From Scenedesmus sp. PABB004 (Eukaryota), in assembly GCA_014905635.1 (NCBI GenBank), contig JABVCE010000013.1:558001-622000 (forward strand): a stretch of 64,000 nucleotides of DNA, written 5' to 3'. How positions within the stretch are numbered: the stretch's first letter is position 1; every line of letters begins with the position of its first letter. Below the pieces are notes generated by a model. The model saw only the letters and a program-made list of their open reading frames with translations, had not been told where the DNA came from and did not search any database. Made by a program: the position numbers and the translations under genes. Below are positions 1 to 20,928 of this stretch, piece after piece.

Positions 1-3000
1 GCTGCTGCCGCCGCCGGCGACCCGAGCGCGGGCGCGCACTCAGCGCCGGCCGCGTCGTCAGCGGCTCCGCCCGCCTGGCTGCTGCGCGCGCTGCTGGCGC
101 CCCCGCCGCTGGCGCTGCTGTAGCGCGAGCTGCCCAGCCGCACCACGGCGTCGTCAGAGTTGGCGCGCTGCAGCGTCGACGCGGGCGGCGCTGAGTGGCG
201 TCCCAGCCCCACGGCCGGCCCGCCGTCCGCCGGCGGGCCCGGGCTCGCGGGGGTGCCACTGTCGCCGCCGCCGCCACCACCGTCGTTGCTGACACCACCG
301 CCCGCGGCGGCGGCGCTCGCCGGCGCAGCCACCGCCGGCACGACGGTGCCGCCGCCGCCGCCGCCGCCGCCAAGCGCCTGCCGCATGCCCGCGCGCTGGC
401 TGTCGGTGAGCACCATGGACGCCGTCATCGAGGCCGGCCCGTCCTCGGGTATGGAGGGGCCCATCGCCAGCAGGCCGCCGCTGCCGCCGCCGGGCGCATG
501 GGTGTCAGGCTCGAGCGCGCTGCGCGGCGCCGGCGCCGGCTCGGGCAGCGCCAGCTCGGCGGCGCCGCCCGACCCCGCGCGCCGCAGGCCGCCCGGCGCC
601 GGCGCCGCCGCGGGGCCCGGCGACACGAACGCCAGCGCCGAGGCGGGGCGCGGCGGCGGCGCGGCGGCGCCGAGGCCGTCGCCCGGCGCGCCCTCCAGCC
701 CCGCGCCGCCGTCGCGGCTGCCCTGGCGCGCGTGGCGGGCGCCGAAGAGAGTGCTCAGCCCGCCCTTGGCGCTGGTCGTGAAGGCCGACAGCGAGCCGAG
801 CGAGCTGAAGCGCCGGTGCAGCGACTTGTGCGGCGGCGCGCCGGCGCCCACCGGGCCGGCCGAGCCGGGCGGCCTGGGCGAGAGCAGGTCGCGCGCGCCG
901 CCGCCGCCCGCGCCGCCGCCGAAGCAGCCCACCGCGTTGGTCGGCGGGGAGGCGGCGTACAAGCCCAGGTCTGCGAGGCCGGGTCGGCGCGCGCGGCAGG
1001 GTCGGCACGCGCAGGCGCGGCGCGCGGCGCAGACCGCGACCACGCCGCCCTCACGGCTGCGCCCACGCACCTGTCCAGGCGCCGGTGAGGACGCTGTCGC
1101 CGTCCGAGTCGCCTGCGGCGCGCGTCGAGCCCGGCGACACGCCCTGCAGCCCCGGGTCCTCCCCGGGCCGCGGGCTGGGCGGCGGCGCGGCGCCGCCGCC
1201 GGCGCGCGCCGCCGAGCGCGAGCTGTCGGCGGCGCTGGCGGCGTCGCCAAGCGCGTCCGGCTCCGAGCCGGGGCTGCCACTCCTGCCCTCGGCGTCCACC
1301 TGCTGCTTGGCCGCCAGGCGCGCGAGCTTCTTCTGCTCCCGCGCCTCGCGCTGCGCCTCCTGCTGCTGCCGCCGGCGCTCCTTGTGGCTCAGCCGGGCCT
1401 TGCTGCCCTGCCCCGCGCCGCCGCCGCGCTCGCTCGCCTCGCCCGCGGCGCCCGCGCCCGCGCCGGCGGCGGGCTCGTCCGCCGCCTGTGCGACGCCCTT
1501 CTTCTTGGCGCCGCCGCCGGAGCGGCTGGCCAGGCGCGAAAGCAGCGAGCCCTGCGCGCGCGCAGCCGCCGCGGCGGCGGCGGCGGCGGCGTGGGGCCCG
1601 ACGTGGCGCCACGCGCGCTGCGGCCGCCGCGCCGGGGCGCCCTGCCCCGCCGCCGTGCCCCGCGCCTGCCGCCCGGGCCCCGGCGCGGCGCACCTTGCGC
1701 GCGAGGCCCGCCTCGCCCTCCACCGGCAGGGGGATGGGCAGGCTGAGGTCCAGGAACGGCTCGTAGCTCACGCTGGCGTGCCCGCAGCCTGTGCAGGCGA
1801 TGGTCGACACCAGGACGCCGCCAAACACGGCGTCCACGCCCGTCGCGCCCGCCGACGCAGGCGGCTCCGGCGGCAGCAGCGACCTGCGCAGCAGAGGGAG
1901 GCTGCTCGCCGCCGGCCGGCCCGCCTGCGCGGGCTGCTGCAGCGGATCGCCGCACGCCGCACAGGCGCTGCTGTCTCTGCCGCTGGCACTGCTGCTGCTG
2001 CTGCTGCTGCCGCTGCCGCTGCTGCTGCCGCTGCACCGCGCCAGGCCGTTGGCAAGGCGCTGGCCGCCGCCGTTGGCCAGGCCTGCCGCGTGGCTGCCGC
2101 GCTCGCCACCGCTGCTGCTGCTGCTCTCGCTGCTGCTGCTGCTCTCACTGCTGCTGCTGCTCCTGCCTGCCTCCTGCCGCACGCCAATGCCGACCCCTGC
2201 TGTGCCGCTGTCGTTGCCGCCGCCATCGCTGCTGCTGGTGCCGTCCGCGCCAGGCGACAGGTCGCCCTGAGAGGCGTCTGCTGCCAGGGCCTCGCGCAGC
2301 GCCGCAAAGCTATGGCTGCATGCCTGCCGGCTCGTCGACGCGCCGCTGCTGTCGCTGCTGCGGCCGCTGCTCCTGCTGCTGCCGGCATCGCCATCGGGCG
2401 GCGCGCCTGTCGTGGCCAGCGCCGCCTGCTCTGCGCCGCCGTCGCCGGCGTCGGTGCCGCCTGACGCAGAGCCGGCCTCGCTGCCGCTGCCGCCGCTGCT
2501 GCTGCTGGTGCTGCCGGCGTTGCCGTTGGCAAGGCCGTTGGGCGGCTTCTGCCCGCCGGGCCCGCCGCCGCTGCCGCGCTTGGCCAGGTCCTTGTAGCGC
2601 TGCTCCTGCGTCTGCGCGGCGCGGCGTGGCGCGAGCAGGGGTCGACCAGCCCGCGCGGCGCGGCGGGGCGTGGCGGGGCGCGGCGGCTTGCACGGTGCGG
2701 CGCCACGCACCTGCAGGCCGTCCAGCAGCATGCGCATGAGCTCGTGGCTGTCGTGCTGCTGCTTGCCCTTGAAGGCCGGCGCGTGCACGCACACGGCCGA
2801 CAGCAGCGACTGCGGGTTGTACGTAGCGCTGCCCCGCCCGCCGCCGCCGCCGCCGCCTGCGCCGCAGGGCGCGCGGGGCCGCACGGGCGGTGGCACGCGC
2901 GGGCCGTCGGCGCGCGGGCCGTCGGCTGGCCGCGCACGGCGCGCCCCAGCCCCGCCCCGAGCAACCGCGGCGCCGCGCGCACCGCTCGCAAACTTGGCGG

Positions 3001-3505
3001 CCTGCTGCAGCGCGTAGCCGAGCGGGCCCTTGGTGATGTCGTGCTGCGGCTGCAGCAGCACCTCCTGCAGCGGCGCGCACGCGAGCAGGAGCTGCAGGCT
3101 GCTGTTGAAGAAGCACGTGTTGCCCAGGTTGCTCAGCCCCACCACGCCGCCGCTGCTCGCGGTCCGCGCGCCGCCGCCGCGTCGCTGCCGTCGCCGCCTG
3201 GCTGCTGCTCGCAGGACGGGCCCTGCGGGGCGGCAGCGCGCGCACGCGCGCTGTCACACCAGCAGCGCGCGCGCGCGCGGCGACGGTGCTCCGGCCAGCA
3301 CGAGGGGCGGCCCGCGGCAGCAGCGGCGGCCCTGCCGCCGGCCAGCTTGGCGGCAGCGGCGGCGCGCGAGGTCTCGGCGCCCGCTCACCGGGATCGCGCC
3401 GGCGTTGGCGCCCTGGACCTTGGCGCCAGAGGCCAGCCTGGCCGCGTGCTTGAGGTACGCGCCCTTCTTGGGGCCCGCCTTGGAGCCCTTCTTGCCGCTC
3501 GCCAT
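1..3505 (-). CDS. Ubiquitin carboxyl-terminal hydrolase (USP/C19 family, USP16/45-like); 5' part only, gene continues beyond the left edge; spliced
   Basis: Cys box GLSNLGNTCFFNSSLQ, FKGKQQHDSHELMRMLLDGL, and VFGGVLVSTIACTGCGHASVSYEPFLDLSLPIP. Likely ATG at 3505 (MASGKKGSK). His box not within the window. Confidence 0.92.
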
Positions 3506-9299: not shown

Positions 9300-12170
9300 T
9301 CACGCCGCGGCGCGCGTGTGCGCGGCGGCGCCGAGCATGTGCAGCGCCAGGCCCTGCACCACCGCCTCCTGCGCCACCACGCCCTGCTCCAGCAGCGCGC
9401 TCAGCACGTCGCCGTCGGTGACCTCCGCCGCCGCGACCGGCGCCACGGCCGCGCGCGCCGCCTCCACGGCGCCCTCCACGTCCACGTCGGGCTCCTCGTA
9501 CGGCGGCTCAGCCTCGCCGTTGGCCTGAGCGCGCGGGCGCGGGGGCGGCCGGTGCGCGGCGTCGCGGCCGGGCGGGCCGCCTGCGGCCGTGCCGCGCTGG
9601 GGCCCGCGCCAGCGCGCGGCGCCGCACAGCCGCGCCCCGCGCGCACCCGCGCCTCCGCGACCGCCGCCTCGTGCGCCGCCGCCGCCGCGAGCTGCGCCTC
9701 CAGCTCCGCGCGCCGTGCCTCGCCCGCGGCGGCGCGCGCCGCCTCGAGCGCCGCCTCGGCGTCGCCGCCGGCCTTGGCGCCCAGCTCCGCGCGCACCGCG
9801 TCGATCTGCTCCTGCCGCGCAACCTGCGTGGGCACGGCCGCGGCGGCCCAAGGCCTGAGCGAGCTGCGAGGCCAGGGCCCCGGCGGCGCAGCCGGCGCGC
9901 GGCGCGGCGGGCTGCGCAGGCCGCGCCCCGCGGCGCACCGGCGGCTGCAGGTGGTTGAGAATGAAGGTCGCCTTGGCCCGCAGGTCGGCGAGCTCGGCCG
10001 CGCTGGCCGCCGCGGCCGCCTCGGCCTCCTGCGCGGCGCGGGCCGGGCGTGCGCCGCCGGCCGTGGGCGGCGGCGCCCGGCCACGCGCGCAGCCACGGCG
10101 CCCCCACCGCCACCCGTGCACCTTGGCTGCGTACGCCTCGACCGCCGCCGCCTGCGCCGCGGCGAGCTCGAGCGCGCCCGCCGCGGCGCTGGCCCGGAGC
10201 GCCACCGCGTCGGCCACGAGCGCCGCGACGACGTGCCGCGCCAGCAGCCCGCGCTCGATGTGGGCGACTGCCTGCTGCATGAGCCAGGGCATGAACTCCG
10301 CCTCGACCTGGGCGGCCGGAGCGGCCGGGCGGCCGGGCGCCCGCGTCAGCGGGCGCTGACGCGGGCGCCCGCGTCGCGGCAGGCCGGCGGCGGCCCGCGC
10401 GCCACCCCAGCGGCGGCAGGCCGGGCGGCGCGCGCGTGCGCGCGACGCCCCTCTGCCGGCGGCGGCCCCGCGCGCGCGGCCGGGCGGCGCGCCTCGCACC
10501 TCGCGCTGCGTGGGGTCATAGAAGAAGCCGCTGTCGGCGAGCCGGCCAAACACGGTGCCCACCATGCCGCTCAGGTAGCGCCGCGCAAACGCGGACGCCG
10601 CGACCTTGGCGCGCACGACGCGCTCGCGCTCCTTGCGCTCGCGCTCCTGCGGCGCCGCGCCGGCGCCGGCGGCGGCGTCGGCCGCGCCCCAGAGCCGCAG
10701 GGCGGCGCGGCGGCGCGGCGGGCCGCGCGCGCACCTGCTTGACGCGACGCTCCTTCTCCTCCACCTTGCGCCGCTCCGCCGCCTCCAGGCGCTGCGCCGC
10801 GACCAGCTCCGCGGACCTGCGCCGGCGCGGGGGCGGCGCGGGGCTCGGGCGCGCGCGCCGCCGCGGCCGTCCCCGCGCCGCCCGCCCACACGCCCGCGCC
10901 CGCGTGCCTGATGGCCTCGTAGTGCGCCTGGTGCGCCGCGAGCGCCGCGAGCTCCTCCTCCTCCATCACCTCCATCAGCGCCTGGACGCGGCACGGCCGC
11001 CACGGCAGCGTCACGTCAGCCCCAGCGCCCGCGCAGGCCGGCCGACCGCGCGCGCGCCGCGGGCGCGCCGCGGGCGCGCTGCGGGCCGCCGCACCTGCTC
11101 CAGCACCTTGCCGACCAGCACCTCCAGCAGCGGCTCGACCTCGGCGTCAAAGTCAAACAGCTCGCCTGGGGCGGTGGCCAGCGGGGCGTGCGGCGCGCGG
11201 GCGCGGCGCGGCGCGGCGCGGCGCGTCGGGCCACGCAGGCGCGGGCGCCCCTCCGCGGCCGCGTGGCGGCGCCCGCGTGGCCGGCGGTGGCCGCGCGCGC
11301 GCGCGTGCGCGCGCGCGCACCCGTCTCGATCTGTGTCGCCGCCTCGACGCCGTCGGGCGGCGGCACGAGCGTGGGCGTGGGCGGGCGGTCGAGGAAGGCG
11401 TCCGTCTGCGTGTGGCTGTCCGCCTCGGGCACCACGTCGGTCAGCTCCTCAAGGTACGTGTCCGTCTGCCGGGGGCGGGCCGGGGCCCGGCGGCGCGTGA
11501 GCGAGTGACGGGAGCGGCGGCGGCGCGCGAGGCGCGCGCCGAGCCGGGGAGGGCGGCGTGCAGCTGCGCCCACCCACCTGCACGTCCATGTGGCGCCGCC
11601 CGTCGACCGGCTCGGGCGTCGAGATGGCGCGCGCGCGGCCCGGCGCCCGCCGCCTGCGAGAGAGCGGCGCGGCGGGGGCGATGGGACCCCGCGCACAGCC
11701 AGCGCGGCGCGCGGCCAGCGCGCGGCGCCGCTCACGTGGCACTGGCGCTCGCGCTGCCGGCCTGCTTCGCGGTGAGGCGCAGCACCGGCTCCGCGGGCAG
11801 CACGCGCGACGCGTAGGTGTTGCCGCGCACGACGCGGCGGTCAAACATAATGTTGGGCGGCGCCGGCTCATCCTCGCGTTGCTGGCGCGCGGGCGGGCGG
11901 GCGGCGCGCACGTGCGCGCGGGTCGGAGCTGCGCCGCGCGGCCGGCCGCCGGCGGCACGCTGCCGCGCGCCGCCGGCGGGCGCGGGGCAGGCTGGGGCCG
12001 CCAGCGGGCGGCGCCGGGCTGCCGCGGCGACCCGTGCCCAGCCTCGCGTCGAGCGCTGCTGCTCTCCGCCGCGCGCGCGACCGCCGCCGCACCTTGGCGC
12101 GCCGCTGCTGCAGGGGCTTGGGCTCCGCAGCGTGACTGTAGAGCTGCTGCGTCTGCGTGTTCGGCGGCAT
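9300..12170 (-). CDS. RSP3: Flagellar radial spoke protein 3; spliced
   Basis: NIMFDRRVVRGNTYA, STPEPVDGRRHMDVQTDTYLEELTD, TQTDAFLDRPPTP, ELFDFDAEVEPLLEVLVGKVLEQALMEVMEEEEL, GFFYDP. Confidence 0.95.
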
Positions 12171-12616: not shown

Positions 12617-12970
12617 TCACGCGGCGTCGCGCGCGTCGAGCGTGCAGTGGTCGACGATGGCCTCGCGGCAGATGGGGCACTCGCGGCTGTCCGCGAGGAT
12701 GTCGGCGCAGCAGCGCCGGCAGAGCACCATGTGCCCGCACGGCACGAGCACCTCGTCGCGCTCGCGCTCCATGCACACCACGCACAGCCGCTCGTCGTCG
12801 TGCTCCTCGCCGTCCATGCCCAGCTGCTGCATCGCCTCTGCAAGCTGCTCGTGCACCGACTTGCGCGGCGCGGCCGCCGGTGCCGCCGCCGCCTGGCGCG
12901 GCGCGGGCGCCGCCGGCGCGCCGCCTGCGCGGCGCCGGCGCGGCGCCCGTGAGCACGCGCGCGGGCCCCG

Positions 12971-13009
<39 letters not shown>

Positions 13010-13879
13010 TCCGCGTTCGCGCGCGCGCGCGCCCCCCCCCCCCCCCCGCGTGCCCACCTGCAGCGGCGCCGCGCGCCGAAGCCGAAGCCGCGCCGGCGCC
13101 GGCGCTCGCGCCGCCGCCGCGCACCGCATACGCCGGTACCTCCGCGCCGCCCGTGTACGCGGCGAGGACCTGCGCGCCGCGCCGCCGGTGGTCGGCGCCG
13201 CGCGCGGGCAGGACCATGCCGTCGGCGTAGGCCTGGCTGCGCCCCGCGTCGTCGGTCACCGCCCACGCGCCGCCGTCGCGGGCCCCGACGACGTGACCGC
13301 CATGCCCAGCGCGCGCAGGCCGTCGTTCAGCGCCGCCAGCGTGGTGGGCGTGAACCAGCCTGCCGCGGCGGCGGCGGCGGCGGCGGCCGGCGCGGCGGCG
13401 CGTGGGCGCGCCGCGGGCGGCGCGGCCCCAGCCGGGCCGGCGCGCGGCGCCGTCCCCTGCCCCCCGGCCGCTGCACCGCCGGTGTCCAGCACGACGTCGC
13501 CGCTCGGCTTGACGCGGAGCAGCGCCGCGCGGTGCAGGCGCATCACGACGTCGCCGGTCGTCGGCTCGCGCGCGACGTGCTGGAAGGCTCGGTAAAACGC
13601 CTCCGCGCTCGCCGCGCCGCCCCCGCTCCCCGCCGGCGCGGCGGCGCCGGGGTTGACCGGCTGCCACTGCGGCCGCGTCCACGGCGCCGCGCGCTGCGCA
13701 GCGCTGCCGCTGGCGCCGCCGCGCGGCCCGGCGGCGGCGGGCTTGGCCTTGGCCGGGGGCGGCCGCGCCGCCGCGCGCGGCGCCGCCGGTGCCGCCTTGT
13801 CGCGCGCCGCCGGCAGCGCCGCCACGTCCTCCACGTGCCCCTCCTCGTCCGCGTGCTCCAGCAGCGCGAACGCCGACAT
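12617..13879 (-). CDS. RING-HC protein (probable E3 ligase) with an uncharacterised N-terminal TGGW domain; paralogue 1; apparent 1-nt frameshift near 13280-13286
   Basis: C-terminal CVVCMERERDEVLVPCGHMVLCRRCCADILADSRECPICREAI. N-terminal DVVMRLHRAALLRVKPSGDVVLDTGGWFTPTTLAALNDGL after splicing. Confidence 0.85.
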
Positions 13880-14576
13880 AGCCGTGCTGTCCCCGCGGCG
13901 CCGCGCGCTGCTGCTGAAGCTGCTGCTCCTGGTGCTGCGGCTGCCGCGCCGCGCCTGCTAGCCAGAGCCTCGACCCGGGCGGCGCGGGAAGGCTGCGCCT
14001 GGCCCCAGGGGCCGGGCCCCGCCAGACAGGGGCTCGCGCGATGCGGCGCGCGCCGCTGCTGCGCCGCCGCGTGCCGCACCACTGCAGCTGCTGGCTGGTC
14101 CCGCTGCGCGATCGCGGGGCCGAGGCGCTTGAACTGCTGACGGGGCGCCGCCGCCGGCTGGCGCGGCGTGTGCGTGGCGCAGCTGCTGTCGGCGGGCGGG
14201 CGCCGCTGCTCGGCGCTGCGGCGGCGGCGGGCGGGCGGGCCAGCGGCGGGCGGGCGACGGATCGGCGCGAAGAGCTGGTCCGCGGCACGGCGCGGCTTTG
14301 CGGGGCTGGCTGGCGCGGGGCCGGGATCCCGGAGCTGGGCAGCCGCACAAGCGCGTCACGACCGGGTTCGGCGCGCCTCGACGGCTCGCGCGTGTTCGGT
14401 TGCCCCGCGCGCGCGCCCCGCGTCCGCGCTGCTGCAATGCCCCGCCGAGTGCTCACCCGCCCGCCTTGCGGCCCCGCGCTGCGTCCGCGCCCCTTCTCGC
14501 TCCCCCGGCGGCGCACGCACGCGTGCCGTGCGCTGCGCGCGGCGCGACCCCGCCGCCGCCCGCTCAGCCGTCGATC

Positions 14577-15845
14577 TCAGCCGTCGATCTCGACGTGAAA
14601 CTCGATGGCCTGGCAGCACATGGGGCACAAGCCGGTGCCGTCCATGACCAATTTGCAGCATTGCCTGTGGCGCGCGCACGGCCGGGCGGGCGGCGGCAGC
14701 TTGAGCGGCGGCGGCGGCGCGCGGCGCGCGCGCGGGCCCGCGCCCGCCGCCTCACCCGCAGAGCGCGAGGTGGCCGCACGGCACGAGCACGATCGAGCGC
14801 GGGCGCTCCATGCAGACGACGCAGAGGTGCAGGTCGTCGTCGTCGTCGTCGTGGGCTGCAAGGGACGCTTGCTGCATCTGCGCCGCGAGCTGGTCTGCCG
14901 CCGCGCGCGGCGCCGCCGCCGCCGCCGCCGGCGCCGGCGCCGCGGCCTGCTGCTGCAGGCGGCTGCGCGCGACGTCCAGGCCCCGCATGTTGTTGCTGCC
15001 CGCCGGCGCCGCCGCCGGGCGCGGCTGCGCCGCGGGCGGCTGCGCTGCCGCGGGCGGCTGCGCCGCCGGGCGGGGCTGCGCTGCCGCCGGGCGCGCCGCC
15101 GGGCCGGCTGTGGCGCCGCCGGGCGCGCCGCCGGGCGCGCCGCGGGGGGCGGCTGTGGCGCCGCTGGGCTCGGCGCTGGCGCGCCGAGGCCCGTCGCGCG
15201 GCCCGCGGCGGCGCCCGCGCCGGCGGCCGCCGCGGGCGGCGCCGCGCCCGCCGGGCGCGCCGCGGCCACGCTGGACCACTTGTCGACCGCGCCGTGCGGC
15301 GCCGCGGCGCGCGGCGCCGCGGGCTGCGGCGCCGGCCCGGGGCGCGCCGCGTGGTGGTGCACGGGCGCGGGCGCGTGCGCCGCGGGCGCCGGCGGCGCGC
15401 TCGCGACCGCGACGCGCGGCGCCGGCGCCTGCGCGGCCGCGCGCGGCGTGTAGGGCACGCCGTACGCCTCGGCGAGCCAGCCCGCGCGCTTGTGCGCGTC
15501 GGAGCCGCGCGCGGGGATGGTGACCGACGGCGCGGCCTTGGTGTTGGTGTAGGGGGTGACGCTGCCGTCGTCGTCGTACACGACCCACTCGCCGCGCGGG
15601 ACGTGCTGCGTCGTCGACGCGGCCCACATGTTGAACAGCTCGAGCGCGTCGTTCATGCTGCGCAGCGTCTTGTGCGTCGCCCAGCCGCCGGTCGAGAGCG
15701 TGACGTCGCCGCGCGGGGTCACGCGCACGATGTCGGTCTCGTGGAGGCGCAGGACCACGTCGTTGCTGCCCCGGTCGACAAACACGCGCTGGCTGCGCCG
15801 CCGGACCTCGGGGTTGTCCGGGTAGTTGGTCGTGTACGGCGGCAT
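14577..15845 (-). CDS. RING-HC protein (probable E3 ligase) with an uncharacterised N-terminal TGGW domain; paralogue 2; apparent 1-nt frameshift near 15101-15103
   Basis: DVVLRLHETDIVRVTPRGDVTLSTGGWATHKTLRSMNDAL, a P/A/Q-rich linker, then CVVCMERPRSIVLVPCGHLALC-(intron)-QCCKLVMDGTGLCPMCCQAI. Confidence 0.88.
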   Translation of the reverse strand: MPPYTTNYPDNPEVRRRSQRVFVDRGSNDVVLRLHETDIVRVTPRGDVTLSTGGWATHKTLRSMNDALELFNMWAASTTQHVPRGEWVVYDDDGSVTPYTNTKAAPSVTIPARGSDAHKRAGWLAEAYGVPYTPRAAAQAPAPRVAVASAPPAPAAHAPAPVHHHAARPGPAPQPAAPRAAAPHGAVDKWSSVAAARPAGAAPPAAAAGAGAAAGRATGLGAPAPSPAAPQPPPAARPAARPAAPQPARRRARRQRSPARRRSRPRQRSRPRRSRARRRRRRAATTCGAWTSRAAACSSRPRRRRRRRRRRRRARRQTSSRRRCSKRPLQPTTTTTTTCTSASSAWSARARSCSCRAATSRSAGEAAGAGPRARRAPPPPLKLPPPARPCARHRQCCKLVMDGTGLCPMCCQAIEFHVEIDG

Positions 15846-16495: not shown

Positions 16496-18588
16496 TCAGG
16501 CGCCGGCGCCGGCCGCCGCCGCGCCCGGCGGCGGCGCGAGCCAGCGCTTGAGCGTCTCGTAGCTGCAGAACGCGATCGCCACGCCCGGCACGACCTTGCA
16601 GTACTCGGGCACGATGCCGACATAGAAGCCGGCGAGGCCGCGGCCCTGGCCCGTGATGGAGCGGATGATCGCGGCGTACTGCGCCGCGCCGCCGCCGCGC
16701 CCGCGCGCCGCCACGCCCGCGACCTGCGCCGGCGGCGCGCGCGCGCGCGCGCGAGTTGAGAGGGTGTGGGCAGGGACGGCGGCGGCGGCGGCTGCGCGCG
16801 CGGCCGCGCCGCGCCGCGCCTGCATGCGCCGCCGCACGACGTCGAGCGGGAAGGTCACGGTCGCGGTGAGGAACCCCGACGCGCAGCCCGACGCGAGGCT
16901 GATCGCCGCGGGGACCTCCACGGCCGCGCCCCCCGCGGCGCCGCCCGCCGCGCCGGCCGCCGGCGCGCGCTGGGGGGCGGCCGCCGCGTACGCGTCCGCG
17001 GCCGTCGCCGCCGCGGCGCCCGCGCGCGCGAGGCCGCCGCCGGCCGCGTCGCCGCCGCGGGCGCCGTCGCCGAGGTGCCACATCAGCATCTGGCTGTGGC
17101 TCATGCCCTGGTCCACCGAGCTCGCGACCGCGAGGCTGTGCGCGGCGCTCTCGCGCGGCGCCGCGCCGCGCAGCAGGCCCGCCCGCCGCGGCGCTTGCTG
17201 AGCCTGCTGCTGCTGCGCCTGCTGCTGCTGCTGCTGCTGCTCCTGCTGCTGCTGCCGCTGCTCCTGCTGCGTCTGCGGCTGCGCCTGCAGCTGCTGCGCC
17301 CGCTCCGGCTGCTGCTGCGCCTGCGCCCGCGGCAGCTCCTGCGGCCGCGCTGCCGTCTGCGCGAGGCGGCGCGTGTGCACCGCCATGCACGCGCTGCGGA
17401 TGGCGTCGTAAAGGCTGAAGTTCAGCGCCAGCGACGGCACCACCTGCGCGGCGGCGCGCGCCGACGCGGGCGGCGGCGGGCTCAGCGCGGCCGACCGGCC
17501 GGCGGGCAGCACCACTGCGCGCCGCGCCGCCCCGCGCCCCGCGGCGCGGCCCCGCGCCTGCAGCAGCGTCGCGCCGAGGCCGCGGTACAGCCCCGCCGCG
17601 CCCTCGTCCGCGACGACGCGGCGCAGCGTGGGCAGGATGCCCCGGTAGTAGGCGCCGTCCGTCTGCGCCGCGAGCCGCGTGCGCACCAGGTCGAGCGGGT
17701 ACGCCTGCGCCCGGCGGCAGCGGCGGGGCGTGACGGCGGCGTCGCGCCCGGCGGCGCTCGGCGGTGCCGCGGCGGCACCGCGCCGCGCTCGGGCGGCCGC
17801 CGCGGTGCGGCCCCGCACCGCGGTGCACGCGGCGAGCCCGGCGAGCCCGCCCGCCGCGAGCGTGCGCGCAAAGTCGGACGTCCCGGGCGGCAGGCGGCGG
17901 CGCAGCAGGTTGTTGGTGTGCTCGTAGGTGTAGAAGTTAATTGACGAGTAGGGCAGGCGGTGGAGGATGGTCGCGAGGTTGCCCTTCCACAGCGCGGCGG
18001 CGCCCTCGCGCCGCACGACCTGCGCGGCACGCGCCCCGCGCCGGCGGCCCCGCGTCAGCGCCCGGCCGCGGCGAGGCGCCGCTGCCGCGCAGCGCTCCCG
18101 CGACGGCCGCGGCGCGCGCGCGCGCGCGCCTGCATGAACGCGTGACGGAGCTTCGGCGGCTGCGCGACCGCCGCCTGCCCGCCCCCCGCGCCGCCCGCGC
18201 CGCCGGCGCCTGTGAAGCCCTGGACCTGCACGGCAGGCAGTGGGCGGCGGAGTGCGCACAGCGCCGGGCGGCGGCGGGCGGCGCATGGGCGGCGGGCGGC
18301 GCGGCAGCAGCCGCTGGCAGCGCCGGCCGCGCGTCCCCGCGCGCCGCCGCAGCCGCTGCGGGCGCCGTGGCGGCCGTCAGTGGCACCCGGTGTGCGCCGC
18401 ACCTGGTACAGGATCGTGAGCCGCGCGAGCGGGGCGGTGCAGGACTTGGCGAACGCGCCCGCGAGGCCGCCCGCCACGCCATAGCGCAGGCCCTCCGCCC
18501 ACGCAGAGGGCGCGGCGGGGAGGGGCGGCTGCGACGCCTGCTGGGCGCCGAGCTCCGCGCTCGGCGGCGCTATCGCGGCGGCGGTCAT
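16496..18588 (-). CDS. Mitochondrial carrier family (SLC25) protein, nucleotide/CoA-carrier-like; 6 exons
   Basis: Three carrier repeats: APLARLTILYQ, YPLDLVRTRLAAQ, FPLDVVRRRMQ; also EGAAALWKGNLATILHRLPYSSINFYTYE. Confidence 0.95.
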
Positions 18589-18782: not shown

Positions 18783-20640
18783 CTATGGTGGGTACACGCT
18801 CCACATGCTGATGGCGGCGTCGCGCCCGCCCGCGGCGAGCAGCGCGCCGTCGGGCGACCACGCGAGGCACGCGACCTGCTCCGCGTGCCACCGCAGCAGC
18901 GCGAGCGGCGCACGCCGCCGGGCGTGCCACAGCCGGACCTTGCCGTCCCAGCCCGCCGACGCGGCGAGCCGGCCGTCGCCGCGCACCACGACGTCGGCGA
19001 CGCCCGCGCGCGGCAGCGCGAGCGCCGCGGCGGGCGCGAGCCGCCCCGCGGGCAGGTCGAGGTCGAACGCAGCGAGCGCCGCGTCGGCGGAGCCGCTGAA
19101 GCCGCCGGCACAGGCGGGGCCGGCCGCGAGGCACATGACCGCCTCGCTGTGCAGCTTGGCGGCCGCGAGCGCGCGCGCCGGCGCGCGAGCGTCCCACAGC
19201 GCGACGCTGCCGTCCTCGTAGCCGGCTAGGGCGTGCAGCGCGCCGCCCTGGGGCCGCAGCAGCGCGAGCGCCATGCACACACCGCGGCTGGGGCGCTCCC
19301 GCGTTCGCTCCTGCCGCAGCAGCACCTGCGGCGTCGCGGCGGCGGCGCCGCCGCTCTCCTCGAGCTGCCACACGCCCACGTCCGCGGCGTCCTCCGTCGG
19401 CAGCGCCAGCAGGCAGGGCCCGCCGCACGCCTCCGCTGGCTGCCCGCCGCCGCCGCCGCCGCTGCCGCTGCCACCGCCGCCGCCGCCTCCGTTGGCCGCC
19501 GCCGCTGCGGCGTCCGTGGTCGCTGCTGCGCCGCGGCCGGGGCGGCGCATCAAGCGCTCCTCATCCTCCTCAGTCAGGTCGAGCCCGCCGCCGCCGGCCT
19601 CGGCCTCGCCCGAGCCCCGCCCCGGCGGCGCGGCGAGCGCCGGCGCGGCCGGCGCGCCCCCCGGCGGCCCGGCCAGCTGCCGCGAGAGCGCGCCCGGCGG
19701 CGGCGCCCGGCGCTGCCCCAGCTGCTCCAGCTGCTCCCGCGGCTGCTGCTCCGGCTGGGCCTGCTGCGGCTCCGCTGCGCTGCCAGTGCGGACGGCATGA
19801 TAGACTCGCCGCCCGCCGCCCCACGCGCCGTCGCCGCCGCCGCCGCCGCAAGGGTCGGCGCCCGCGCCAGCGCCCCCGCCGGCGCCCCGCCCCACAGCGC
19901 AGCTGCTGCTGGCCTGCCCCGGCTGCAGCAGCGCGAAGCGGCAGAAGTTGTATGACCCCGCCGCGAGCACCTGCAGCGGCTCGCTGGCGGCGGCGGCGGC
20001 GGCGGCGGGTCGGCGGCGGCGGGGTTGACCGCGGGCTCACTGCGAGCGGGGGTCAGTGCCAGGTGCTGCTGCCACGGGCGCCGCCGCACCTGCTCAGGCA
20101 GCTGCCGGAGTGAAGGCCCCACGTCTTGACGACGCCGTCTCTGCCCTGGCTGCCCAGCGCACGGGAGCAGCAGCAGCGGCAGCAGCGAGCTCAGCGCGCG
20201 GGCGGGACAGCGCCGCGCCCGCCGCCGCCCGCCGCCGCCCGCCGCCGCCGCTCACGCGGCCGTGGCCGGTGCCGCACCTGATCACGCGCGGTGCGCCGGC
20301 GGCGGGGACCGCGACCTGCAGCACGCCGGAGTGGCTCTCGTGTGCCCGTATGCTCACGACGGCACGCCGGCTGTCCAGGTCCCACAGCGTCAGCTGCCCT
20401 TCGCCGTCGCTGCGCGGCGGCAGCGCCGGCAGGGCGGCAGCGGCGGGCGGCACGCGGCGTCGGCCGCGCTGCGCCAGCACCACCGCGGTGGCGGCAGCGG
20501 CCCTTCGCCACCCCGCACCCCGCGGCGAGCAGGCGGCCGTCGGGCGAGAAGCTGACCGCCTGCACCGCCGCGCGGTGCCCGCGCAGCACGAACACCGGCT
20601 CCGGCGGCGGCGGGGGCGGCGCGGCCGCGGCGGCGGCCAT
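18783..20640 (-). CDS. WD40 repeat protein, DSE1/GNB1L/ASA1-like; spliced
   Basis: PEPVFVLRGHRAAV, GQLTLWDL, QGRDGVVKTW, YNFCRF, LAGYEDGSVALWD, RGDGRLAASAGWDGKVRLW, AAGGRDAAISMWSVYPP. Confidence 0.88.
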
Positions 20641-20928
20641 CGTTGTCAACACGTGTGCACACGATCGGGCAGGTGGCACTGGCGCAGGCGGCGGCACGCC
20701 CCGCTGACGAGCGCGGCGGGCAGCCGGTCGTCACGAGCTTTCCGCCGCTGCACCGCCGCCGCAGGGCCGCAGCAGCCCTGGCAGCCCACGCGGGCGCACG
20801 CTGCTCTCGCCACGCATCGCGACCACACGCTCCGATCGACTGCTCGATTGTGCGGCACGCACGCCATTCGATCGCACCCCGTCCTCGAGCCGAGCGTGGC
20901 GCCGTAATTCTGCGCCCCGCTGGCCGCC

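Follow-up and report, generated by a model that had tools for sequence, protein, structure and literature searches.

A tandem pair of predicted algal RING E3 ubiquitin ligases carrying an N-terminal domain homologous to phage proteins of the PF23790 family

Gene organisation of the locus

The window considered here is a stretch of 64,000 nucleotides (nt) from contig JABVCE010000013.1 of Scenedesmus sp. PABB004 (positions 558,001 to 622,000), with a G+C content of 74–83% throughout; the host of the genes described below is a very GC-rich, green-alga-like eukaryote, and the genes are nuclear. On the minus strand, between positions 12617 and 15845, the list of open reading frames (ORFs) and the sequence itself reveal two paralogous genes of one architecture. 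Gene 2, of type A, lies upstream (15845–14577) and gene 1, of type B, lies downstream (13879–12617), position 15845 belonging to the ATG of the upstream gene and position 12617 being the final base of the stop codon of the downstream one. The common layout includes an N-terminal domain of about 110 amino acid residues (aa), a low-complexity linker, a helix with the motif QLA..MQQ accompanied by an acidic patch and, at the C-terminus, a RING finger of the C3HC4 type. The coding frames are marked by a G+C content of about 100% at the third codon position (GC3), a signal that vanishes in the introns. Within the window, a tblastn comparison of the domains of the two genes showed 39% identity over 113 aa (E-value 2e-18), and a hidden Markov model (HMM) of the domain, built from its relatives, matched gene 2 with an E-value of 1.1e-41 and gene 1, spliced and with an X at the frame break, with an E-value of 2.8e-35; judging by these comparisons, the likeness of the two domains is far beyond chance. 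A preliminary description of this DNA as containing two adjacent, diverged paralogues with a shared architecture and differing intron positions agrees with both gene models, the motifs being present in each, and the introns lying within TGG|W and the linker in gene 1 and within the RING in gene 2.

The coding span of gene 2 (14577–15845, minus strand), from the ATG at 15845 to the stop codon at 14577–14579, is delineated by ORFs, the GC3 frame signal, stop-free spliced models and orthologues with 67–70% identity. Residues 1–135 (15441–15845), with a conserved core at about residues 15–128, constitute the PF23790-like domain and include the previously noticed motifs DVVLRLHETDIVRVTPRGDVTLSTGGWATHKTLRSMNDAL, GEWVVYDDDG and PARGSDAHKRAGWLAEAY. 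The linker contains the motif W-S-S-V-A (15264–15278), a local form of the type-A motif (G)SWANIA, which was found in 19 of the 167 collected proteins, all of them of type A. The frame changes in the Ala/Pro/Gln-rich part of the linker (15095–15111), and two models, both translated without stops, account for this change. Model i, based on the list of A/T phases and the reading of the repeat, places a 1-nt break in CCGGCCCGG and gives a product of about 392 aa; model ii has a GT–AG intron (15269–15169) instead of the break, which would cut the conserved motif W-S-S|V-A, and gives a product of 358 aa. The helix ADQLAAQMQQ and the acidic run DDDDDD (14833–14898) are located just N-terminal of the RING and are kept in the Tetradesmus protein P0016. 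The first part of the RING, from C1 to C4 and ending with GHLALCG (14756–14823), matches PF13920 with an E-value of 1.3e-8, and it is followed by a predicted 91-nt intron inside the RING (14665–14755; GTGAGG...CACAG), the removal of which restores the C3HC4 pattern CVVCMERPRSIVLVPCGHLALCGQCCKLVMDGTGLCPMC; the second part of the RING, the C-terminal tail and the stop codon (14577–14664) were assigned from the sequence and the spliced model.

The coding span of gene 1 (12617–13879, minus strand; ATG at 13879, stop codon at 12617–12619) would encode about 337 aa with one frame break, and the region was matched by the orthologues P0043, P0026 and P0065 in tblastn searches. The N-terminal motif MSAFALLEHADEEG (13838–13879), consisting of xAFALL and an acidic run, is common to the type-B relatives, P0043 and P0026 showing it in an alignment of the protein starts. 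It might be of the Stm1/SERBP1 type; the Pfam matches to Stm1_N (PF09598) are sub-threshold and were obtained for three of 16 relatives (P0031, E-value 0.001 and 20.2 bits against a cut-off of 23; P0153, E-value 0.056; P0058, E-value 0.62), and the Pfam search with gene 1 of the window gave no match to Stm1_N at E ≤ 1. The first part of the domain (FYRAFQ...VVLDTG-G, 13477–13597), recognised from the sequence and the domain HMM, is followed by the predicted intron 1 (13360–13476; 117 nt, GTGCAG...GGCAG), which is in frame, shows a loss of GC3 periodicity and splits the near-invariant GG|W, where GGW is kept in 93–98% of the alignment rows. The 39-aa stretch inside TGG..W, rich in Ala and Gly, is this in-frame GT–AG intron, and its reading as protein was rejected. 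The second part of the domain (13150–13359) continues the motif series, which reads DVVMRLHRAALLRVKPSGDVVLDTGG, intron, WFTPTTLAALNDGL, GAWAVTDDAG and PARGADHRRRGAQVLAAY, and the spliced domain matches positions 6–114 of the family HMM. The linker harbours the predicted intron 2 (12925–13057; 133 nt, GTGGGC...CGCAG), containing a run of 16 G (13047–13032), a (GC)n stretch and (GCGGGC)n repeats (about 13012–12971). The helix HEQLAEAMQQL with the acidic patch DGEEHDDE (12791–12853) precedes an uninterrupted C3HC4 RING (12668–12784; CVVCMERERDEVLVPCGHMVLCRRCCADILADSRECPIC) located in the last exon.

The RING fingers and their relatives

The last exon of gene 1 matches PF13920 (zf-C3HC4_3, IAP-like) with 57.5 bits against a cut-off of 27 (E-value 1.1e-15), and the first RING exon of gene 2, taken alone, scores 34.9 bits over positions 3–26 of the 49 positions of the profile. 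Both genes encode eight zinc ligands spaced as C-x2-C-x(9-20)-C-x-H-x(2-3)-C-x2-C-x(4-20)-C-x2-C, a pattern that gene 2 shows only after the removal of the 91-nt intron. The nearest solved chains are those of cIAP2 (3eb5, E-value 1e-9), cIAP1 and XIAP, followed by PEX10, MGRN1, MEX3C (which is in the top 12), RNF4, MYLIP, MUL1 and MDM2; the IAP/Mdm2 type, as supposed earlier from the sequence, is therefore correct for the RING.

Like the IAP-type RING E3 ligases (cIAP1/2 and XIAP, but also MDM2, MUL1, MYLIP and MGRN1), the window proteins carry the PF13920 C3HC4 RING at the extreme C-terminus, after a helix. Unlike them, they contain no BIR, CARD, p53-binding or other known substrate domain, and the phage-type domain is found instead. 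MEX-3 proteins combine two KH domains with a C-terminal PF13920 RING. The MEX-3-type RNA-binding RING E3 ligases resemble the window proteins in that a module for RNA recognition, a putative one in the window proteins, stands at the N-terminus and is joined by a disordered linker to an IAP-like RING at the C-terminus. This is an analogy rather than membership; the window proteins are devoid of KH, RRM and CCCH domains, and their phage-type domain is a putative RNA binder. Pfam searches at E ≤ 1 found none of the recognised RNA-binding domains KH, ROQ, CCCH and RRM in either gene, and the likeness to RNA-binding RING E3 ligases of the MEX-3, Roquin and MKRN kinds is one of architecture only. 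The pair would represent RING E3 ligases with a new recognition domain.

Homology of the N-terminal domain to phage and bacterial proteins

A direct Pfam scan of the gene 2 domain gave PF23790 (Kyano_Gp96) with an E-value of 0.037 and 14.6 bits, and a comparison with phrog_554 gave an E-value of 6.9e-4. The exon-1 ORF of gene 1 yielded no Pfam match to PF23790 at E ≤ 1, NCBIfam offered no family for either N-terminal region, and a sequence search of the PDB with an 84-row profile of the domain returned just one chance-level row (E-value 0.28). With the 135-aa region as the query, phmmer revealed 241 matches at E ≤ 1e-3 among 1.84 billion representative proteins, including 18 at ≤ 1e-10 and seven at ≤ 1e-30. 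The Pfam scan covered 63 of the 150 phmmer matches listed (241 in total) and found PF23790 in 30 of these 63 at E ≤ 1e-3 and in 14 at the gathering score; phrog_554 was matched by all ten small or prokaryote-type hits tested, with E-values from 1.1e-6 to 6.9e-17 (nine at ≤ 1e-8). An hhalign comparison of a 20-sequence eukaryotic alignment with a 22-sequence phage/bacterial alignment indicated a clear relationship (probability 99.6%, E-value 7.5e-24, 82 columns), and those members of the phage/bacterial alignment that were tested match PF23790 or phrog_554 directly. In the ESM Atlas, all 30 of the 30 feature hits were PF23790 clusters, the recognition value of the query being low.

These sequence comparisons confirm the homology of the window domain to the PF23790/phrog_554 proteins, the function of which is uncharacterised; by the curated cut-off the domain is not a member of PF23790, and it represents a divergent branch of this superfamily in eukaryotes. 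The resemblance to small phage and bacterial proteins, previously noted without a search, is thereby substantiated by the hhalign result and by the phmmer hits matching PF23790 or phrog_554, as well as by the structural matches to phage models described below. The preliminary description had also named a characterised eukaryotic family, or a lack of phage homologues, as findings that would count against it; the domain matches no characterised eukaryotic family in the Pfam, NCBIfam and PDB sequence scans, and the phage homologues were found.

The PF23790/phrog_554 proteins, encoded by T4-like cyanophages, by Caulobacter, Burkholderia, Campylobacter and actinobacterial phages and in bacterial genome bins, share with the window domain the signature RLHxTDIV...G...GGWxTxxT...N...W. 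They are standalone proteins of about 100–130 aa, or are extended at the C-terminus by CxxC...H...H or by a basic tail; they have the motifs NNT and TTKxR and lack the last helix. The window proteins, in contrast, are encoded by spliced eukaryotic genes, and in them the domain has an additional helix at its C-terminus and is followed by a linker and a RING. For the phage-type member P0052, a tblastn search found 47 phage records, which belong to phages of Synechococcus (25), Caulobacter (9), cyanophages (5), Burkholderia (4), marine phages (2), an uncultured phage (1) and a phage of Arthrobacter (1). Among the 30 of these 47 records for which gene labels were listed, 24 read hypothetical, unnamed or gpN, four were unannotated, one read '21: hypothetical protein' and one read putative transcription regulator. 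In two genomes the family gene sits amid small genes of uncharacterised function, and some phage members (P0112, P0137) have long Lys/Arg-rich tails.

A bacterial long form of about 230–270 aa has an extra C-terminal region with the conserved pattern GDCWxC ... H...H.EE.Y.VPSL (CxxC...H...H), which is likely to be a zinc site. An alignment search of genome contigs located this form at four loci of bacterial genome bins; the locus of a Chloracidobacterium bin belongs to a phage-like region, where genes for an S77 prohead protease, a D12 DNA methyltransferase, T5orf172 and DUF6744 are also found. The same kind of search with P0126 found no locus in the genome contigs. No giant-virus carrier was found among viral contigs with a single-domain query, which reaches close relatives only, and one partial match of 26 residues to a viral contig was not counted.

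The database link between phages and eukaryotes exists already, Pfam having tagged one eukaryotic protein (Hariotina P0014) with PF23790. In the literature searched, no paper was found that names the PF23790/Kyano_Gp96/phrog_554 family, and the eukaryotic radiation of the domain appears to be undescribed there.

Predicted structure and conserved residues

AlphaFold 2 modelling of the gene 2 domain, using 84 aligned sequences, resulted in a model with a mean pLDDT of 89.7 and a pTM score of 0.81. The predicted fold consists of two halves, each of them a four-stranded meander followed by a helix. A Foldseek search against BFVD, a database of predicted viral structures, found six matches at E ≤ 1e-3, all to uncharacterised phage proteins, with a probability of 1.0, a root-mean-square deviation (rmsd) of about 2.5 Å and TM scores, normalised to the target, of up to 0.73. 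The model of the phage member P0052 (pLDDT 86.8) shows the same order of elements as the algal one, and the fold would thus be shared with phage proteins, as far as the predicted models reach.

Searches against solved structures gave nothing comparable. With the algal model, Foldseek found no PDB entry at E ≤ 1e-3 (best E-value 0.062), and VIA-align found none of 48,161 chains at Z ≥ 5, the best being 2qzi_A (Z-score 4.2, rmsd 3.3, 82 aligned residues); with the P0052 model, the best Foldseek E-value was 0.44 and the best VIA-align match was 7n6g_4E with a Z-score of 3.8, none reaching Z ≥ 5. For neither of the two confident models did these searches find a solved counterpart, which does not by itself prove the newness of the fold. 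The check by structure prediction and Foldseek that had been proposed for the domain has produced a confident model and matches to phage models, and no match to a solved structure.

The residues conserved in at least 70% of the rows on each side (104 eukaryotic, 51 phage/bacterial) are H35, T37, I39, G46, L50, G53, G54, T57, T60, N65 and W87. Those of them that are polar or glycine, plus W87, comprise H35, T37, G46, G53, G54, T57, T60, N65 and W87; the Asp at D38 is conserved in just 57% of eukaryotes. The conserved set forms a Gly-rich loop leading into the Thr/Asn-lined start of a helix, beside a His-x-Thr strand, and it looks like a possible pocket for a polar or anionic ligand.

Relatives, tree and age of the pair

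The orthologues of gene 2 (type A) are 58–70% identical. One of them, Tetradesmus obliquus P0016, is a gene model of 342 aa with the same domain, the same linker motifs and a PF13920 RING. RING-bearing orthologues of gene 1 were found in Raphidocelis, Volvox, Gonium, Astrephomene, Sanguina and Haematococcus, and named orthologues of the pair also come from Tetradesmus and Hariotina. The Hariotina gene model P0014 contains a type-A domain, type-A linker motifs and a type-B N-terminal motif, followed by a type-B domain, an order which indicates that the A-then-B tandem is conserved in Hariotina. The ORF P0026 from an MMETSP transcriptome, marked as complete and 423 aa long, joins a type-B domain to a RING. 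The joining of the domain to the RING in transcripts, on which the preliminary description depended, is thus supported by a transcriptome ORF for type B; for type A the fusion is predicted by the gene models of the window and of P0016.

The domain tree was based on 178 sequences matching the HMM (the collected proteins and the two window domains); 158 stretches had an i-E-value < 1e-4 and at least 60 HMM positions, and 155 of these were also at least 75 aa long; these 155 rows, aligned in 124 columns, were analysed with SH-aLRT support only. The tree separates a 51-row phage/bacterial side from a 104-row eukaryotic side with a support of 95, where the label 'phage/bacterial' derives from motifs and clade, and not from the source records of each row. 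Both window genes belong to one 49-row clade (SH-aLRT 98) that contains 10 of the 12 rows labelled as RING type B, and type A forms a 27-row clade (SH-aLRT 99) nested among B-like rows. The well-supported A and B groups, each with chlorophycean orthologues, support an old tandem duplication, the products of which have been maintained across chlorophycean algae, as the preliminary description had supposed. Its suggestion that the module is derived from a virus or a prokaryote is supported as regards homology; the direction from virus to alga finds no support in the tree, which is unrooted and only separates the phage/bacterial side from the eukaryotic one.

In Tetradesmus obliquus, P0016 and P0025 have consecutive locus tags and are both of type A, one with a RING and the other with CCCH fingers, which suggests domain shuffling by tandem duplication at the locus.

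Fusion partners of the domain in eukaryotes

Among the 63 domain carriers scanned with Pfam, a C-terminal PF13920 RING was found in eight, a DEAD-box helicase in two (including P0051, 859 aa, named DDX3X by its source), ankyrin repeats in two (one from the haptophyte Chrysochromulina), a CCHC or CCCH zinc finger in two (one from the haptophyte Chrysotila) and a BSD domain in one (Haematococcus). The Tetradesmus protein P0025, which lies beside P0016 by locus tag, likewise combines a type-A domain with CCCH fingers. In the DDX3-like DEAD-box helicases of marine protists (P0051, P0169–P0174, P0034–P0037), the domain is N-terminal, reads RLHQTNIV...SSGGWRTHQTLKGIN and forms one 13-row clade.

Another group of domain carriers resembles the ALY/REF adaptors of mRNA export. 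The N-terminal start xGLxMSLDDII was found in 14 of the 167 collected proteins, nine of which are also RGG-rich; the named carriers come from Chlorella sp. A99 and Polytomella. The N-terminal peptides of human THOC4/ALYREF (ADKMDMSLDDIIK; PMC4661793) and of Arabidopsis ALY2 (SGGLDMSLDDIIK; PMC6283158) are the same as this algal start, and the N-terminus of ALYREF is presented as a UAP56-binding motif and its central domain as an RRM (PMC12823420). Since the start is of the ALY type and the centre of ALYREF is an RRM, the phage-type domain of the algal proteins occupies the place of the RRM of ALY. In a comparison with the ALY/REF layout (N-UBM, RGG, RRM, RGG, C-UBM), the sister algal proteins are alike in having xGLxMSLDDIIK and RGG repeats and differ in having a phage-type domain for the RRM, whereas the window genes have a RING and lack the ALY motif. 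The ALY-like algal family (P0042, P0060, P0175, P0079, P0135, P0166) is characterised by xGLxMSLDDIIK, RGG, the phage-type domain and a conserved C-terminus VFxRLG...RRLxxQGR[YF]; these proteins may form a class of mRNA export adaptors that has so far gone unrecognised. Pfam searches at E ≤ 1 found nothing for nine of ten ALY-like proteins and chance-level rows only for P0064, and phmmer, queried with P0135, matched no ALY chain in the PDB, the motif being too short.

Proposed function and alternative explanations

The recurrence of RNA-linked partners makes recognition of RNA or of a ribonucleoprotein (RNP) the best guess for the role of the domain. We propose that the two genes encode RING E3 ligases whose domesticated phage-type module recognises RNA or RNP, and that they are RNP-directed rather than sensors of defence, a proposal to which we give about an even chance. 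The C-terminal IAP-like RING, positioned after the helix and the acidic patch, would recruit a ubiquitin-charged E2, and the N-terminal α/β domain of about 110 aa, with the signature H-x-T...G...GGW-T-x-x-T...N...W, would serve as the target-recognition module, binding RNA or a component of an RNA–protein particle. A plausible candidate for the binding site is the conserved Gly-rich loop together with the Thr/Asn-lined beginning of the helix, where a phosphate could be held. If binding of RNA or RNP is real, the pair would ubiquitinate proteins on messenger RNPs (mRNPs) or ribosomes; the binding, the ligase activity and the targets are all inferred.

Several findings weigh against this proposal. 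The gene 2 domain scores 14.6 bits, below the PF23790 gathering score of 27. No recognised nucleic-acid-binding fold is present among the PDB matches of either the algal or the phage model, and the ankyrin and BSD partners are not RNA-specific. Outside the window, a full-length type-A domain with a RING is found in the gene model P0016 only, and the transcript-derived type-A ORF P0021 (250 aa) stops before any RING. Finally, there is a break inside the gene 1 domain and possibly another in the gene 2 linker, and one or both copies could be broken.

A more inclusive scenario, which seems rather improbable when taken as a whole, joins these observations: the fold, born in phages, may be a new module binding RNA, RNA ends or nucleotides, which was acquired once by photosynthetic protists, possibly as a cyanophage gene with the plastid ancestor, and was then wired into ALY-like adaptors, DDX3-like helicases, CCCH/CCHC proteins and the tandem RING ligases, where A and B would form a heterodimeric E3 marking components of mRNPs or ribosomes.

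The domain might also bind a protein, a peptide or a small molecule, without any relation to nucleic acids, and bring a protein substrate to the RING, in which case the fusions with RNA-related partners would be coincidental. Protein-binding domains are common in RING E3 ligases, fusions with ankyrin repeats and BSD do exist, and the fold matches nothing known, all of which is compatible with such an adaptor role. RNA-linked partners, however, are found again and again in architectures independent of one another (the ALY N-terminus, RGG, DEAD-box, CCCH and CCHC), and the invariant residues are polar or glycine and do not form a hydrophobic groove, so that this explanation seems unlikely.

Sensing of nucleic acids or a role in defence, which the preliminary description had considered possible, did not find confirmation. 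As an explanation, it would have the domain sense viral nucleic acid or a viral protein and the pair act as an antiviral E3 system; the abundance of the domain in phages (the 47 records for P0052 and the top BFVD matches, all from phages) is compatible with this, and the tandem duplication and divergence could suit an arms race. The nearest solved RINGs are of the IAP type, and such RINGs act in animal innate immunity. On the other hand, PADLOC-DB, a library that is prokaryotic only, gave no match at E ≤ 0.01 for the 15 proteins compared with it, namely the window domain and 14 of its phage/bacterial relatives; type A orthologues keep 58–70% identity across genera and both types are kept in Chlorophyceae, which resembles housekeeping genes and not rapid diversification. 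The other eukaryotic fusions (ALY-like, DDX3-like, CCCH/CCHC) belong to core RNA metabolism and not specifically to defence, and the neighbouring genes, encoding radial spoke protein 3 (RSP3), a mitochondrial carrier, a WD40-repeat protein and a ubiquitin C-terminal hydrolase (UCH), are housekeeping ones. Given these points, we consider a defence system quite improbable.

It can be supposed, too, that one or both copies in the window are decaying pseudogenes and that the architecture is a relic in this genome. The domain of gene 1 is broken at 13295–13266, with the effect of one missing base in tcGGGGCCCgcgacggcg, the shift of the frame sitting within tcGGGGCCCgcg, and the linker of gene 2 changes its frame near position 15100. 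An intron as the explanation of the break in gene 1 was rejected: there is no AG within 13295–13266, hence no splice acceptor near, and a longer intron would remove the invariant Trp, so the shift is a frame break and not an intron. Past the break, the codon bias and all conserved residues (W, DG, PARG..R..L.AY) carry on undisturbed and the match to the HMM persists, and for this reason an assembly error is more likely than decay, as far as the sequence can tell. Moreover, either side of each break shows a GC3 close to 100% in the correct frame, the corrected frames contain no stops, both breaks amount to one missing base in G/C runs, which is the usual assembly error, and for gene 2 the model with a GT–AG intron needs no break; decay is accordingly viewed as very doubtful. 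Assembly indels arise easily in tracts of G-runs and GC repeats such as those of gene 1 intron 2, a point of relevance to the frame breaks nearby. A small enzyme acting on a nucleotide or an RNA end, with the RING coupling this activity to ubiquitination, would fit the cluster of H35, T37, D38, T57, T60 and N65 kept around the Gly-rich loop across phage and eukaryotic members, but it is the least credible of these alternatives, no enzyme family or fold having been matched, the Asp being kept in just 57% of the eukaryotic members, and the domain being only about 110 aa long and occupying the position of the RRM in the ALY-like proteins.

Recognition of RNA, nucleotides or RNPs, as proposed here, would be a first functional lead for PF23790/phrog_554, a widespread family of phage 'dark matter'. 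The pair defines a conserved and so far uncharacterised couple of RING ligases of green algae, some of them relatives of Chlamydomonas, where mutant libraries are available, and it points to a family of ALY-like adaptors in which a non-RRM domain replaces the RRM. It would also be a clean example of the domestication of a domain from phages or bacteria and of its radiation in eukaryotes. With no solved counterpart for either model, a structure of the domain would probably be informative.

Neighbouring genes

The genes around the pair are spliced eukaryotic genes with ordinary housekeeping functions, all of those listed here being on the minus strand. The RSP3 gene (9303–11840), with at least three exons and frames, is located directly downstream of gene 1, and its presence implies that the organism has, or had, motile flagella. 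The mitochondrial carrier gene (16499–18376) is a single open frame of 626 aa with three Mito_carr repeats and long Ala/Gln-rich stretches, which are probably in-frame introns or low-complexity inserts. A UCH fragment (758–3253) and the WD40-repeat gene (18786–20730) have no evident functional tie to the RING pair.

On the plus strand, an antisense open frame of 90 aa with a GC3 of 0.99 lies over the gene 2 domain (15553–15822). It was rejected as a gene: its GC signal mirrors the codon bias of the sense strand, and a G+C content of about 80% leaves all six frames largely open.

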